Notes under the pieces: generated by a model
Told to the model about the DNA's origin: nothing
The model's database searches: none
Seen by the model: only the letters and a program-made list of their open reading frames with translations
NCBI GenBank assembly: GCA_904419095.1
Contig: CAJFQT010000002.1
Span: 1-33,916, forward strand
DNA length: 33,916 nt
Direction: 5' to 3'
Source of the DNA: an uncultured Clostridia bacterium
GTDB taxonomy: Bacteria; Bacillota; Clostridia; TANB77; CAG-508
Program-made: the position numbers and the translations under genes
Part shown: positions 2,241 to 33,916 of the stretch, piece by piece
Numbering within the stretch: the first letter of the stretch is position 1
Layout of the letters: the number at the start of each line of letters is the position of its first letter

Positions 2241-3492
2241 ATGAGAGATAATATGAGTTATATAAATGAAAACTTTTTAGAATTACAAGATAGTTACTTA
2301 TTTTCTACAATAGCAAAAAAAGTAGCTGAATACACAGAAAATAATCCAGAGAAAGAAGTCATAAAATTAGGGATAGGAGATGTAACAAAACCAATAGTAC
2401 CAGCTTGTATTGAAGCAATGCATAAAGCAGTTGATGAGATTGCAACAATAGAAGGATTTAAAGGATATGGACCAGAGCAAGGATATGAATTTTTAAGAAA
2501 AGCAATTGCAATAAATGATTATAAGTTAAGAAAAATAGAAATAGAAGAAGACGAAATATTTGTATCAGATGGAGCAAAGTGTGACTCTCGGAAATATAGT
2601 AGACATTTTTGCAAAAGAAAACAAAGTAGCAATAACAGATCCAGTATATCCAGTATACTTAGATACAAATGTAATGTCAGGAAGAAGCGGTAAATATAAT
2701 GAAGAAACAGGAAAATATGAAAACATTATATATTTACCAGTAACAGTAGAAAATAACTTTAAACCAGAATTACCAAAAGAAAAAGTAGATATAATATATT
2801 TATGTTTTCCAAACAATCCAACAGGAACAGTTTTAACAAAGCAGGAATTAAAAGAATGGATTGATTATGCAAAAGAAAATAAAGCAATAATCCTATATGA
2901 TTCAGCATATGAAGCATTCATAGAAGAAGAAAACATTCCACACAGCATATATGAAATAGAAGGAGCAAAAGAAGTAGCAATAGAATTCAAAAGTTTTTCA
3001 AAAACAGCAGGATTTACTGGAGTAAGATGTGCATACACAGTAGTACCAAAACAAGTAAAAGGATATACAAAAAAAGGAGAAGAAATAAGTCTAAACAAGC
3101 TATGGAACAGAAGAACAACAACAAAATTCAATGGAGTATCATACATAGTACAAAGAGCAGCAGAAGCAACATATTCAGAAGAAGGAAAAAAACAAATAGA
3201 AGAAAATATAAAATATTACAAAGAAAATGCCAAAATAATAAAGCAAGGACTAGAAAAAGCAGGATTCAAAGTATATGGAGCGATAAACTCACCATACATA
3301 TGGCTAAAAGTACCAGAAGGAATATCATCATGGGAATTTTTTGACAAACTACTTAAAGAAGTAAACATTGTAGGAACACCAGGAAGTGGATTTGGTCCAA
3401 GTGGAGAAGGATATTTTAGACTAACAGCATTTGCAACAAGAGAAAATACAATAAAAGCAATGCAAAGAATAGAAAACTGGAAAAGGGATTAA
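2241..3492 (+). pseudogene. dapL: LL-diaminopimelate aminotransferase (DapL-type), interrupted by a 1-nt insertion near 2587-2589
   Basis: Two overlapping ORFs (2241-2693 and 2560-3492) together form one class-I aminotransferase. Frame 1 reads ...[10 protein letters not shown] and frame 2 continues [29 protein letters not shown]. Removing one base of 'tctcgga' restores the conserved DGAKCD-GNI junction. The true start may be ATG 2253 (MSYINENFLEL). This may be an assembly indel rather than a real pseudogene. Confidence 0.8.
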
Positions 3493-30029: not shown

Positions 30030-30395
30030 TTTATTGAATTAATTTGATTTATAAATTTAATAAGTACAAAATAAATATAGCATTTTATTAGAAAATTTTC
30101 AATATGCAAAAATAAAAAAAAATTAAAATTAAGATATTTTTTGGTTTTTTTAAATCTTTATTTTTTCTTTAATTTTAGCTTTTGTTGGGTTCATCGATAT
30201 TTTTGTTAATCAAATTAATTTACAAAAAATATAGCATAAATCATTTAATCGTTGGGTAAATTAAACTTAGATAAAAACATACTTAATAAATTAGAATTTT
30301 ATAAATAATCAATAATATTATAGTCTATTTACTGCAACATCTATTTTTTATAAATTTAAATTTTTATTTTACAAAAATTAAGGAGGAATATTTCA

Positions 30396-32150
30396 ATGTA
30401 TTATCAAAAGAAAAATTTTAAAGAAACAAAAGGTATAACATTAATAGCATTAGTACTAACAATAATTATTTTATTAATACTAGCAGGAGTAACAATCTCA
30501 GCGCTTAGTGGAGATAATGGAATATTGAATAATGCGACCAAAGCGAAGGAAGAAACAGAAAAAGCTAGTAGAGAGGAAAATGCAATATTACAAGGTTTAT
30601 TAGATGAAATGGATAATATAAATCCATCAACAGATGGATTTAATGAGGCAAAAAATGTAAATAGTCCAAAATTAAGTCAAGGAATGATACCAATAAAATA
30701 TAATGGCAGTAATTGGGTAGTTTGTGCAGAAGATGACGATGATTGGTATAGTTATGATAATAATAAAAAGTGGGCAAATGTAATGTTAAGTGACGGAAAA
30801 TATAAAGAAGGACAAGTACAAGTGGGACAAGTTGTGGAAGAAAATGAATTAGGAAGTATGTATGTGTGGATACCAAGATATGCATATAAAATAAATGGAA
30901 CAAATAGTATAGATGTTACATTCTTAGCAGGTAACACAAATAGAGATGGAGCAGGTACAGAATATGCAAAAGAATCAGCGGAAGTAGATACAACTACAAC
31001 TAAAATTGTTCATCCAGGATTTACATTAGGAAATAGAGAATTAAGAGGAATATGGGTTGCTAAGTTTGAAGCAAGTGGAACTGATAGCAATGGAAATGCA
31101 GTAGGAAATGCAAGTGCAGATTCTGGTTCACAGAAATATGCACCGGTATCAGGTGTAACAATAGCAAAAAGCTTACCAAATAAAATAAGTTGGAGACATA
31201 TAACTATAGGAGAGAGCGAATATCAAAGTATGCTAATTGCAGGAGATAATAAAGATAAATATGGATTAAATGGGGCAAGTAGTCATCTAATAAAAAACAA
31301 TGAATGGGGAGCAGTAGCATACTTGTGTTATAGTAGTTATGGAACTGTGCCAAAAACTAATAGTTGTGGAACATTAGTTCAAGATAGTCATTGGTATGAT
31401 TTATATACAGGGCAAGGACCAAAAACATCAACAAATGAAGGTTGGTATTCATATGAAGAAGGACATGGATATAATACAACAATAGGAATGTTATCAAGTA
31501 CAACTGGAAACATAACTGGAGTATATGATATGGCGGGAGGAGCTTACGAAAGAGTAGCAGGATATTTAGATAACGGAAATGGAAATTTAAATACTTATGG
31601 AAAAAGTACAAGTAATAGTAGTATAAAATATTTTGAAAGTGGAACTTTAAAATCAGAATATAAAGATTTGTGGAATAGTTATGAAGTAAGTGAAGAAGAA
31701 AAGACAAATAAAATACAAATAGAAGGAGAAGGAACACTAACCCAAAGTCAATTGTGGAATTGGAATAAAAATGATTTAAAATATCAAGAAGCAAGAAAAA
31801 GATTAACACAGGCAATTTATGAAAATATGGCAGTTCATAAAGGAATAGGCATTAATGAAGTATCAACAGGCTTTTCATTTTATGCACCATATAAACCAGC
31901 AGAAACGGCAAAAAATCAGGCTCCATGGGGGTGGTTTAAAAATCCAGAAACAGCAGCAAAAAATAATCCAAGTCAAGAGTATGGAAAAGCATGGAGTAAT
32001 GATAATATGCTAATAGGACATGCTTCGGTGCCGTTCGTTGTGCGTGGTGGTGGTTGCAGTGATGGTAGTGGTGCTGGTGTGCTGTATGCGGGGATTACTG
32101 GTGGTTACGCTAGCAACAACAGCGGGTTCCGCGCTGTGTTGGTCGTGTAG
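30396..32150 (+). CDS. DGR variable (target) protein: prepilin-like N-terminal anchor, large extracellular region, C-terminal lectin/FGE-like variable domain
   Basis: AGGAGG RBS. N-terminus KGITLIALVLTIIILLILAGV resembles a class III (prepilin-type) signal/anchor. The C-terminal ~43 aa (HASVPFVVRGGGCSDGSGAGVLYAGITGGYASNNSGFRAVLVV) are encoded by the VR and end in the GFR-type motif common in C-type-lectin-fold DGR targets. Confidence 0.85.
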   Translation: MYYQKKNFKETKGITLIALVLTIIILLILAGVTISALSGDNGILNNATKAKEETEKASREENAILQGLLDEMDNINPSTDGFNEAKNVNSPKLSQGMIPIKYNGSNWVVCAEDDDDWYSYDNNKKWANVMLSDGKYKEGQVQVGQVVEENELGSMYVWIPRYAYKINGTNSIDVTFLAGNTNRDGAGTEYAKESAEVDTTTTKIVHPGFTLGNRELRGIWVAKFEASGTDSNGNAVGNASADSGSQKYAPVSGVTIAKSLPNKISWRHITIGESEYQSMLIAGDNKDKYGLNGASSHLIKNNEWGAVAYLCYSSYGTVPKTNSCGTLVQDSHWYDLYTGQGPKTSTNEGWYSYEEGHGYNTTIGMLSSTTGNITGVYDMAGGAYERVAGYLDNGNGNLNTYGKSTSNSSIKYFESGTLKSEYKDLWNSYEVSEEEKTNKIQIEGEGTLTQSQLWNWNKNDLKYQEARKRLTQAIYENMAVHKGIGINEVSTGFSFYAPYKPAETAKNQAPWGWFKNPETAAKNNPSQEYGKAWSNDNMLIGHASVPFVVRGGGCSDGSGAGVLYAGITGGYASNNSGFRAVLVV

Positions 32151-32155
32151 CACTT
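32017..32155 (+). repeat. DGR variable repeat (VR), the 3' end of the target gene
   Basis: Aligns to 32234-32372 at a constant offset of 217 nt. Over 32020-32155, 123 of 136 positions are identical and 12 of the 13 mismatches lie opposite TR adenines. It is clearly more GC-rich than the AT-rich surrounding sequence (by eye). Confidence 0.92.
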
Positions 32156-32233
32156 TGAAGTGACCTAGAGCCTAAATACCTTTTTTCGGCACAAATTATT
32201 ATATAGGTATGAAATAAAATACGGGATTAAACT

Positions 32234-32372
32234 GAAATGCTTCGATGCCGTTCGTTGTGCGTGGTGGTAATTGCAATAATGGTAGTGGTGCTGGTGTGCT
32301 GTATGCGAATATTACTAATGGTAACGCTAACAACAACAACGGGTTCCGCGCTGTGTTGGTCGTGTAGCACTT
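32234..32372 (+). repeat. DGR template repeat (TR)
   Basis: A non-coding copy of the VR in the same orientation. In the VR frame it carries 11 AAY (Asn) codons, 9 of which are altered in the VR. A 32-bp identical 3' segment (gggttccgcgctgtgttggtcgtgtagcactt) is consistent with an IMH-like region. Confidence 0.9.
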
Positions 32373-32561
32373 CGATACACAAAGATTATTTTAGTAATCT
32401 ATCCCAGGTAATATTTGTTTAAGGACAAAATTGAGAGTAGTATACTTTAAAGTTAAGACATCAGGATTTGTATCAAAGAAGTTTAATTCCATTGACATGC
32501 ATATGTCATAAACACATAAATAGTAAATTTGTTCTAGTAAGAAATGAAAGTCCAGATTTAT

Positions 32562-32627
32562 AAAAAAATAATTTGCTATAATTCAGATAAGAATAACTTT
32601 GTTTGAATTGTTGCAAATTATTTTTTT
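32562..32627. terminator. Bidirectional terminator-like hairpin between the TR region and the 3' end of the RT gene
   Basis: aaaaaaataatttgc (32562-32576) / gcaaattattttttt (32613-32627). The A-run and T-run flanks allow termination on both strands. Confidence 0.55.
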
Positions 32628-32656
32628 AATAAAATTTTTAAAATAATTTAAATAAT

Positions 32657-33775
32657 TTATAATAAAGAATCTCTTTTAAAATTTTCAATAGATTCAAAAA
32701 ATTTTTTATATTCTTCTTGATAATAACTTTTATTTACTAAAAAATCACATTTGTTTAATATTTTTTGTTGAAGATTATATGAATTACAATGAGATGAATG
32801 TCCAAGCCAAGAATTTAGGCGAGGTAATACTTTTTGAAAATTTAAATTTCCATTTTTGTATAAATTATTCCAGTTTTTAATTTTTCTCTTAATTTTTTTC
32901 TTGCTAGAAGTTCTAAGGAGTCTATGCGTTGAAAAAATTCTATACCCACAAAAATTCACACCCATTTTTGATGGATAATATCTGGATTTATCATTTAAAG
33001 TTAAATGGAGATGTTGAGCAAGGAATTCCTCAATAATTTGTTTATATCTTTTACAATCTAATTTATTTTCTAGTAAAATTATAAAGTCATCCATATATCG
33101 TACATAGTATTTTAAATGTAAAGTTCTTTTTATATATTGATCTAGTTCATTTAAATAAATGTTTGCAAAAAATTGGCTAGTATAATTACCAATAGGAATA
33201 CCAATAGTAGAATTGGAATCAGAACAGCTGAAGATTAATAATTTTGTAAAATCCAATAATTTTTTATCAGATATATATTTTTTCATTATAGAAAATAGAA
33301 TGTTTTTATCTATATTATAAAAAAATTTTTTTATATCACATTTTAAAATCCAATAATCAGGATATGATCTTTGAAAAATTCTCATTTGTTTTTGAATATA
33401 ATCCACAGCTTTGTGAGTTCCTTTATCTGTTAAACAGGCATAAGAAGAAAAAATAAATTTAGGAACTATATAGGGTTTTATAAATTCTTCTATATACCAT
33501 TGATGTACTATTCTGTCTTTGTATGGTAATGCTTGAATAATACGTTCTTTAGGTTCATAAATGATAAAAGAACGATATTTTCCTACCTTATATGTATTAT
33601 TTTTAATATTATTTAAAAGGTTTATAAGATTATTTTCTAAATTAAGTTCAAAATTTATGACTTCATATTTAAATGTTTTGTTTTTTTTTGCTCTGTAATG
33701 TGCAGCAAGAATTTTATCAAAAGTTAAGGAATTATCAAAAGCATTTTTTATCGTTTTAGGCATGATGAAATCCAA
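32657..33775 (-). CDS. DGR-type reverse transcriptase
   Basis: RT motifs: YEPKERIIQALPYKDRIVHQ (motifs 1-2), CDIKKFFYNID (motif 3), IGIPIGNYTSQFFANIYLNELD (motif 4, with the DGR-typical [I/L]G...SQ signature), and YVRYMDDFIIL (motif 5, YMDD). The likely true start is ATG 33763 (MPKTIKNAF), downstream of the AGGAGG RBS. There is no maturase/endonuclease or intron RNA domain. Confidence 0.9.
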   Translation of the reverse strand: MDFIMPKTIKNAFDNSLTFDKILAAHYRAKKNKTFKYEVINFELNLENNLINLLNNIKNNTYKVGKYRSFIIYEPKERIIQALPYKDRIVHQWYIEEFIKPYIVPKFIFSSYACLTDKGTHKAVDYIQKQMRIFQRSYPDYWILKCDIKKFFYNIDKNILFSIMKKYISDKKLLDFTKLLIFSCSDSNSTIGIPIGNYTSQFFANIYLNELDQYIKRTLHLKYYVRYMDDFIILLENKLDCKRYKQIIEEFLAQHLHLTLNDKSRYYPSKMGVNFCGYRIFSTHRLLRTSSKKKIKRKIKNWNNLYKNGNLNFQKVLPRLNSWLGHSSHCNSYNLQQKILNKCDFLVNKSYYQEEYKKFFESIENFKRDSLL

Positions 33776-33916
33776 CCTCCTAACATATTACAGATGTCAG
33801 TTATTAATCTGCACCAATATTCGTAATTTTGAGTAGAAATGTAATGGTATTTATGAGAAAGCCTAATTTGAATTTTTAGCAGATTTAGATTTATATCAAA
33901 TTCATTTAAAAATTTT

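Follow-up and report, generated by a model that had tools for sequence, protein, structure and literature searches.

The open reading frame (ORF) at positions 30396–32150 of a 33,916-nucleotide stretch of DNA from an uncultured gut Clostridia bacterium (GenBank contig CAJFQT010000002.1, positions 1–33,916, called the window below) encodes the variable protein of a diversity-generating retroelement (DGR). The retroelement is chromosomal, and the host DNA has a G+C content of ~28%. Judging from its sequence, the product (hereafter the target) is a DGR-diversified modular pilin-like protein: a type IV pilin-type N-terminal module leads straight into a C-type lectin (CLec) fold of the formylglycine-generating enzyme (FGE) type, and this fold carries the variable repeat (VR) at its C-terminal end. 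We assign a probability of roughly 0.6 to the display of this pilin-like protein on a type IV pilus. The coordinates of all features are collected in Table 1.

The 142-nt VR and the template repeat (TR), which lies 217 nt downstream, are 89% identical. Of the 15 mismatches between them, 13 fall at adenines of the downstream copy, which identifies that copy as the TR and the upstream one as the VR; the chance of such a bias is ~2e-7 (binomial estimate, with adenine making up 22% of the TR). The TR translates as NASMPFVVRGGNCNNGSGAGVLYANITNGNANNNNGFRAVLVV and contains up to 17 recodable codons, 11 of them AAY, which corresponds to about 10^16 theoretical variants. The translated reverse transcriptase (RT) shows the YMDD and SQ motifs, and past the window end the public contig has genes for bAvd and a small MutS domain I (MutS_I) protein, both on the RT strand. 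With a VR/TR pair, an RT accompanied by accessory genes, a CLec fold bearing a C-terminal VR, and diversity confined to the VR, the window ORF is a DGR variable protein. The same order of target with VR, TR, and convergent RT is present in L007, L013, L022, L025, L028, and L030, and adenine-specific VR/TR pairs were found in seven related loci (L007, L013, L025, L028, L030, L049, and L084). A strong Shine–Dalgarno sequence (AAGGAGG) is located 8 nt 5′ of the target ATG. No terminator-like site was detected between the target stop codon and the TR, and the AT-rich hairpin that follows the TR is, from its sequence, likely to be a bidirectional terminator; co-transcription of the target and the TR is thus plausible.

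Two mismatches between the repeats do not involve an adenine. One, at window position 32093, is the third-position T to G change in codon 566 (AAT in the TR, GGG in the VR), and the other, at 32156, lies beyond the stop codon, where the repeats start to diverge. The small MutS domain I (MSL accessory) gene (L001 13718–14146 and L084 16505–16912) is conserved beside avd in this DGR lineage, and in the L084 genome the TR and the RT are separated by an IS21 insertion.

Diversification of the target in natural populations is real and recent. The 90% cluster of the window protein comprises 17 members. P0506, P0507, and P0514 show no differences from the window protein over the 541 non-VR residues, and 10–11 of their 43 VR residues differ; P0509 is likewise identical outside the VR and differs at two VR residues. 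The VR changes in these four proteins fall at adenine-containing TR codons. Moreover, one DGR can serve several targets, because in two metagenome-assembled genomes (MAGs) the TR matches the VR of a second, unlinked paralogue. All 14 mismatches between the TR of L030 and the paralogue VR in L011 (10532–10654) of the same MAG fall at adenines, as do 16 of the 19 between the TR of L013 and the paralogue VR in L014 (1374–1503), again within one MAG. Several pilin-like targets thus appear to be diversified in trans by one DGR. As a separate observation, about one tenth of the family members end in R[FI]PPS..C.. rather than in GFRPVLVV (L018, L025, and L028; P0447, P0458, P0461, P0476, P0485, P0486, and P0499). 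In appearance, these ends are what the same DNA would give if an indel in the VR had shifted its frame, and they could represent either DGR-made null alleles or mis-assembly of heterogeneous VRs.

The body of the target is predicted to be a single FGE-type CLec fold spanning residues 76–584. AlphaFold2, run on these residues with 125 sequences including distant clades, yielded a model with a predicted local distance difference test score (pLDDT) of 96.1 and a predicted template-modeling score (pTM) of 0.95. A Foldseek search of this model against the PDB gave the Thermus aquaticus DGR variable protein TaqVP (5vf4) as the best match, with an E-value of 2.1e-9 and a probability of 1.0; the TaqVP paper confirms that entry 5VF4 is this protein. 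The next matches, all of them FGE-type CLec folds, were Treponema TvpA, formylglycine-generating enzymes, PvdO, EgtB, SenA, and PorK. These matches place the body in the CLec/FGE fold that the first-pass annotation, made from the letters of the window, had proposed. Large insertions keep the TM-scores of the structural alignments at a modest 0.34 and 0.44, and since the whole of residues 76–584 aligns to TaqVP as one unit, no separate globular pilin head is apparent. A sequence profile built from 40 diverse family members also matches TaqVP (E-value 1.3e-4), with three matched segments that include HPAF.., HLMKN.EWGAVA, GIYDM.GG.WE, and the C-terminal RGG..AG..GFRPV. Pfam FGE-sulfatase (PF03781) gave no match to the window protein at E ≤ 1, and homologues score 15.7–19.6 bits, under the 23.3 cut-off, although two homologues carry a precomputed PF03781 match. 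The FGE relationship is therefore visible in the structure, not in the sequence. A first AlphaFold model, built for the full-length target with 46 close homologues, reached a pLDDT of only 51.6, and its Foldseek matches were discarded as meaningless.

The body domain (residues ~85–400) also occurs in up to 15 matched stretches of giant proteins of 3,700–4,500 aa (P0245, P0254, and P0263), and these sequence matches mark it as a surface module that Bacillota reuse widely.

In a structural search of a viral library, the best match of the body was a SUMF-like phage protein (E-value 2.8e-11), and many tail collar fibre proteins were retrieved as well. Such neighbors would suit a prophage receptor-binding protein, the classic DGR target, whose N-terminal resemblance to pilins would then be incidental. 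However, we give this origin next to no weight, and it was rejected on the gene context of the target, which holds no phage genes. The locus is bordered by mur, ftsW, murG, and histidine-kinase genes on one flank and by genes for DNA polymerase III delta', PSP1, and ferredoxin on the opposite one; it is syntenic across nine contigs; and conservation of the N-terminal membrane segment extends through the family.

The N-terminal module ties the target to the type IV pilins. The encoded product has exactly the N-terminus and the ...GFRAVLVV end quoted in the first-pass annotation, whose observations are confirmed throughout: the short basic leader carries a net charge of +3 and ends in Gly13, residues 14–37 are strongly hydrophobic (Kyte–Doolittle 19-residue mean up to 3.2), position +5 is Ala (Ala18) where Glu is expected for type IV pilins, the remaining 540 residues are rich in Gly (11.1%), Asn (9.4%), Ser (8.9%), Tyr (6.1%), and Trp (2.8%), and the C-terminal 43 residues, tail included, are encoded by the VR. 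Its interpretation of one lectin-fold half joined to one pilin-like half is supported, and neither of the two outcomes that it named as refuting was observed. In the low-confidence full-length model, helices are found at residues 12–38 and 43–73.

The family is large, with >6,217 clusters at 90% identity; among 50%-identity representatives, profile matches number 29,700 clusters at E ≤ 0.001 and 1,116 at E ≤ 1e-30. The N-terminal module is kept in 331 of 384 family members. Of these 331, 279 have Gly and 49 have Ala at position −1, 305 have Ile at +1, and 275 have Ala at +5, where Glu is seen in 4. Such sequence conservation is far better than expected for a plain anchor, and the resemblance to pilins is evidently not due to chance. 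Indeed, the diverse-family profile matches the N-terminal half of alpha1 (alpha1-N) of solved type IV pilins, namely Geopilin (E-value 4.8e-5), Thermus PilA, MshA, and PilE1. Distant body homologues in Bacilli MAGs (31–39% identity over residues ~80–410 or further) begin with the canonical KKGFTLIELLAVIVIL (GFTLIELL motif) and score 22.7–28 bits with N_methyl, over the cut-off; one of these homologues also bears a Laminin_G_3 module, as does S. sanguinis PilC, and in L079 a relative of the window protein combines N_methyl, Laminin_G_3, and an FGE-like domain. Among neighbor genes of family members, the same module is fused to LRR_5, Laminin_G_3 (ConA-like lectin), and DUF285 domains, so that it behaves as a general carrier. 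The link to type IV pilins thus draws on these fusions, on the GFTLIE motif of the Bacilli relatives, and on the small pilins of pilus operons described below, which share the module. When the N-terminal 74 residues served as the query of a homology search, most matches were short fragments that gave little information on architectures. The neighborhood of P0191, one of these small proteins, holds fragmented genes and PDDEXK_2 nucleases and no pilus genes, and a full-text literature search for the peptide ITLIALV retrieved no paper.

The N-terminus might also be read as an ordinary Sec signal peptide cut by signal peptidase I, which would leave the lectin domain released or held by the wall. 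The ISALS|GDNG of the target can be taken as an AxS site, and the contig encodes a signal peptidase I ~3 kb farther downstream. Yet this putative site is not conserved, the family consensus being SIAMLTGDNG; the hydrophobic stretch of ~24 residues is long for a Sec h-region; and no wall-anchoring motif or domain was found in the target. We consider such a fate quite improbable.

Type IV pilus operons were identified in relatives of the window organism. In L009 and L015, two related Clostridia MAGs with 27–28% G+C, a pilus operon is located 4–7 kb downstream of a target homologue, in the order PilM/N-like gene, two membrane proteins, two to three tandem pilins, a prepilin-peptidase-N-domain (PilD-like) protein, more pilin-like genes, and PilB. 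The pilins of these operons (145–168 aa) carry the module KG[IV]TL[IV]ALV...GDNGIL and score 25–26 bits with N_methyl despite Ala5. The PilD-like proteins match A24_N_bact, the prepilin-peptidase N-terminal domain, with E-values of 1e-28 to 1e-31, and a metagenome scan with a PilD-like query retrieved 80 loci with the same synteny. L094 has the full set, consisting of a PilM/N-like gene, a pilin, the PilD-like gene, two minor pilin-like genes, PilB (T2SSE, E-value 9e-101), PilT, and PilC. The small operon pilins of the lineage (121–198 aa) pass the N_methyl threshold with 21.6–25.9 bits, also despite Ala5. Compared from Gly13 to position +39 with 72 of these pilins, the window protein shows 47–78% identity, with a median of 67.5%.

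Textbooks present Glu5 as essential for pilin assembly. Among the 159 pilin-like N-termini of the 80 pilus loci, presumed major pilins included, none has Glu5. The type IV pili of this lineage thus seem to be built without any Glu5 pilin, which is the most surprising side result of the analysis. The Walker A motif of the lineage's PilB is APTGEGKT and not GPTGSGK. Apart from these operons, a cluster in L084 (1–8409), which precedes the DGR target of a complete 1.35-Mb genome, contains a weak T2SSE-type ATPase and several small proteins starting MENASKALIIAG.., which is possibly another filament system.

Several results weigh against pilus display of the target. The first-pass annotation had suggested a search with the N_methyl model (PF07963), and here the window protein fell short (9.7 bits against a cut-off of 21.2); it also matches none of the NCBIfam pilin models, including the TIGR02532 class. 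As Glu5, normally needed for pilin assembly, is absent too, the target is not a formal member of the type IV pilin family. In the predicted structure, alpha1 leads straight into the lectin fold, and no globular pilin head was found. The lineage's PilD-like protein never gave a match to the catalytic domain of Pfam Peptidase_A24 and has no GxGD motif; among 58 unique sequences, D134 is invariant, and the candidate second Asp is 83% conserved and replaced by Ser in one subclade. Prepilin processing may accordingly be unorthodox, given the lack of GxGD and a second Asp that is not invariant. A search of solved structures gave no relative for the PilD-like protein. Body homologues occur in 0 of the 80 pilus loci, and pilus genes in 2 of 78 target loci (L009 and L015). 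The operons come from related MAGs and metagenome loci and not from the window organism's own genome, and the number of paralogues per genome is above what minor pilins typically show.

Many of these features would be expected if the N-terminus were an uncleaved signal anchor of pilin ancestry, with the lectin domain held on the membrane or reaching through the wall and not polymerised. The Ala in place of Glu5, the missing globular pilin domain, the PilD-like protein without GxGD and the Peptidase_A24 signature, the dispersal of the genes among housekeeping genes, the many paralogues per genome, and the lack of conserved linkage to a pilus operon all fit such an anchor. We nevertheless judge it unlikely, although by no means negligible, on four counts. 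Position −1 (Gly or Ala) and the ~40 residues that follow are conserved far beyond what a plain anchor would require; operon-encoded small pilins begin with the same sequence; the prepilin signals found on body relatives are fully canonical; and a complete PilB/PilT/PilC machinery is retained even though every pilin of the lineage lacks Glu5.

Sister contigs revealed a further layer of variation upstream of the target. L001 (the window contig) and L166 are 99.5% identical over the full 20 kb, and within 4.8 kb (L001 9500–14300) they differ in three clusters only, that is, the VR, a 19-nt avd deletion, and an inverted segment. Across nine contigs whose aligned flanks otherwise agree, the segment has one orientation in the window and in L001, L002, L003, and L171 and is flipped in L166, L168, L169, and L170, independently of the VR allele and the avd state. 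The TTGAAA-17-TATATT site inside the segment, which by its consensus would act as a promoter, faces away from the target in the window; the flipped form would face it. Neither the Pfam scan of the large window ORFs nor the precomputed Pfam labels of genes on L001 revealed a recombinase or invertase, and the exact inverted-repeat sequence is absent from all other loci compared.

The avd deletion of the window strain is located ~23 nt past the window end (L001 ~13544); it removes 19 nt in L001 and 20 nt in L002 and is frameshifting. Avd is consequently 59 or 56 aa long in L001 and L002, compared with an intact 121 aa in L166, L167, L168, and L171. Sister strains bearing other VR alleles keep the full-length Avd. 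Retrohoming in the Bordetella phage system depends on Avd, and the window's VR allele was found unchanged on four contigs, as would fit a frozen allele. Because the switch points away and avd is frameshifted, the window-strain allele is probably silent and its VR frozen.

In the pilus-display reading that we prefer, mutagenic retrohoming from the TR recodes VR codons of the target, and the N-terminal module would insert the protein with its N-terminus in and its C-terminus out. The lineage's PilD-like enzyme would then process it at Gly13, and alpha1 would let it join the type IV pilus that lacks Glu5. By analogy to other modular pilins, the tip is its most likely place, and there the hypervariable face would present a ligand-binding surface for adhesion. 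Expression of the target, and possibly the supply of TR RNA, would be phase-variable through the 158-bp invertible promoter segment. Cleavage and pilus assembly of the target are the steps that we infer. A broader view may be offered as a tentative one, and on balance it is doubtful: small-genome gut Clostridia would make Glu5-less pili and use the Ala5 alpha1 as a carrier for adhesins of the CLec, LRR, ConA-lectin, and DUF285 types, with some CLec members displayed on pili under the control of a DGR and an invertible promoter that switches the gene and perhaps TR transcription or mutagenesis.

A Pfam scan of the 21 large window ORFs detected pyrimidine, diaminopimelate (DAP), polysaccharide, Mur, FtsW, MurG, and histidine-kinase genes only. 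The first-pass annotation had noted that no pilus assembly genes are present in the window; Pfam scans and tblastn with the lineage's type IV pilus proteins bore this out, with no such genes in the window or, by these searches, in the 51-kb contig. Likewise, the paralogues P0032 and P0013, on complete 1.3–1.6 Mb genomes, have housekeeping neighbors only. As a side observation, the class I/II aminotransferase beside dapF (window 2241–3492) is split into two overlapping ORFs (2241–2693 and 2560–3492), one matching the N-terminal and the other the C-terminal part of the Pfam model, likely as a result of a frameshift or as a pseudogene.

Table 1. Positions of the features discussed in the text (window coordinates unless a locus is named).
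Feature	Position	Strand	Support
Left inverted repeat AATTAATTTGATT	30037..30049	.	perfect 13-bp match with 30208–30220; part of 26-nt imperfect arms (I6)
Invertible 158-bp segment upstream of target	30050..30207	.	both orientations among 9 contigs
Promoter-like site TTGAAA-17-TATATT with TG, inside invertible segment	30074..30102	-	consensus scan 10/12, extended -10
Right inverted repeat AATCAAATTAATT	30208..30220	.	pairs with 30037–30049
DGR variable-protein gene, modular pilin-like product (584 aa)	30396..32150	+	ORF listing; >6,217 homologues
Short basic leader (aa 1–13, MYYQKKNFKETKG), last residue the putative −1 Gly	30396..30434	+	net charge +3
Pilin-type alpha1 helix (aa 14–73): hydrophobic alpha1-N with Ala at +5, amphipathic second half	30435..30614	+	model, family profile, operon pilins
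CLec/FGE-fold body (aa 76–584), predicted	30621..32147	+	AlphaFold2, Foldseek
VR: last 43 residues, stop codon, and few bases beyond	32017..32158	+	repeat comparison; sister-strain differences
TR, same strand as VR, 11 AAY codons	32234..32375	+	repeat comparison
Long AT-rich hairpin between TR and RT stop codon	32561..32628	.	inverted repeat I1; dominant stem in RNA fold of 32140–32660, z-score -3.1
DGR RT, convergent to target and TR	32657..33775	-	RVT_1 E 4e-16
avd gene, 3′ part	33748..33916	-	contig continuation; comparison with sister contigs
PilD-like genes	L009 20299–21138, L015 19759–20574, L094 10022–10837, and 55 other loci		strong A24 N-terminal domain

To date, the closest counterparts in domain layout are the modular pilins PilB (vWA module) and PilC (ConA-like lectin module) of Streptococcus sanguinis, for which a pilus-tip location has been proposed (PMC8179133, PMC9934059). 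The target resembles them in its monoderm host and in having a pilin-type signal and alpha1 that carry a bulky C-terminal binding module. It differs in that its effector is an FGE-type CLec fold rewritten by a DGR and in that the pilin part consists of alpha1 only: by the definition of a modular pilin as alpha1 plus a beta-sheet head followed by a module (Raynaud et al. 2021), the alpha1 and the CLec module are present, and no head was found. In addition, PilC has the canonical Glu5 (PMC9934059), whereas the target has Ala5 and would have to enter the pilus with it. Loss of Glu5 is tolerated in the filament-capping subunit of other systems, as seen in the tip minor pilins GspK and the K subunit of the HIJK complex and in S. 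sanguinis PilA (PMC9934059). However, a single subunit lacks Glu5 in those systems, in contrast to the 0 of 159 pilin-like N-termini with Glu5 in the pilus loci of this lineage.

The DGR-diversified tip adhesins of Bacteroides type V pili (bioRxiv 10.1101/2024.11.15.621889) offer a second parallel, with a gut commensal host, a DGR that is chromosomal or borne on an integrative and conjugative element (ICE), a variable CLec head on a pilus-subunit scaffold, and a presumed role in adhesion. The pilus systems are wholly different, however: in diderms, strand exchange joins type V pilins that are made as lipoprotein precursors, whereas the target has a type IV-like class III signal and belongs to a monoderm. 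The Bacteroides study makes no mention of an inverton.

Among variable proteins of known structure, TaqVP and TvpA share the fold of the target, with the VR at the C-terminal end of the CLec fold and an ending of ...GFRxV, although sequence identity to the target is ~14% and large insertions are present. TvpA is a lipoprotein, and we know of no pilin-like N-terminus on either TaqVP or TvpA (PDB 5VF4 and 2Y3C, respectively). TaqVP has been described as prophage-encoded. The cassette resembles the MSL-type DGRs (architecture D; Wu et al. 2018, PMC5758913), in which the RT is joined by Avd and a small protein with MutS domain I, and the same survey reports DGR components, even TR and RT, on different strands. 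The retroelement is therefore of a known kind, and nothing essential sets it apart from an MSL-type cassette. Similarly, the invertible segment is like gut-bacterial invertons (PMC11892184, PMC11602134), that is, a short promoter-like segment flanked by inverted repeats before a surface-protein gene and occurring in both orientations in nature. Unlike those invertons, it lies upstream of a DGR target and TR, and no invertase gene was found nearby. One survey lists a GspG-type pilin domain among the rare VR-bearing proteins. No literature linking DGR targets with prepilin signals or with invertons was found.

Each ingredient is thus known, from modular type IV pilins and DGR-encoded CLec proteins to type V pilus tips, MSL cassettes, and invertons, and the combination was not found described. 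The architecture, called unusual in the first-pass annotation, is so with respect to the literature; in nature it is not, the family exceeding 6,000 clusters at 90% identity. DGR targets of cellular genomes are mostly proteins without known localization, and the target offers a concrete, testable display route for one of them. The Glu5-less pilus lineage bears on the membrane extraction and packing of pilins. Furthermore, nature supplies controls on one backbone, with both inverton orientations, intact and deleted avd, and several VR alleles, which would allow the link among expression state, TR transcription, and mutagenesis to be examined in existing metagenomes. If the pilus-display reading is true, type IV pili would join type V pili as scaffolds for retroelement-diversified adhesins, here in uncultured monoderm gut commensals.

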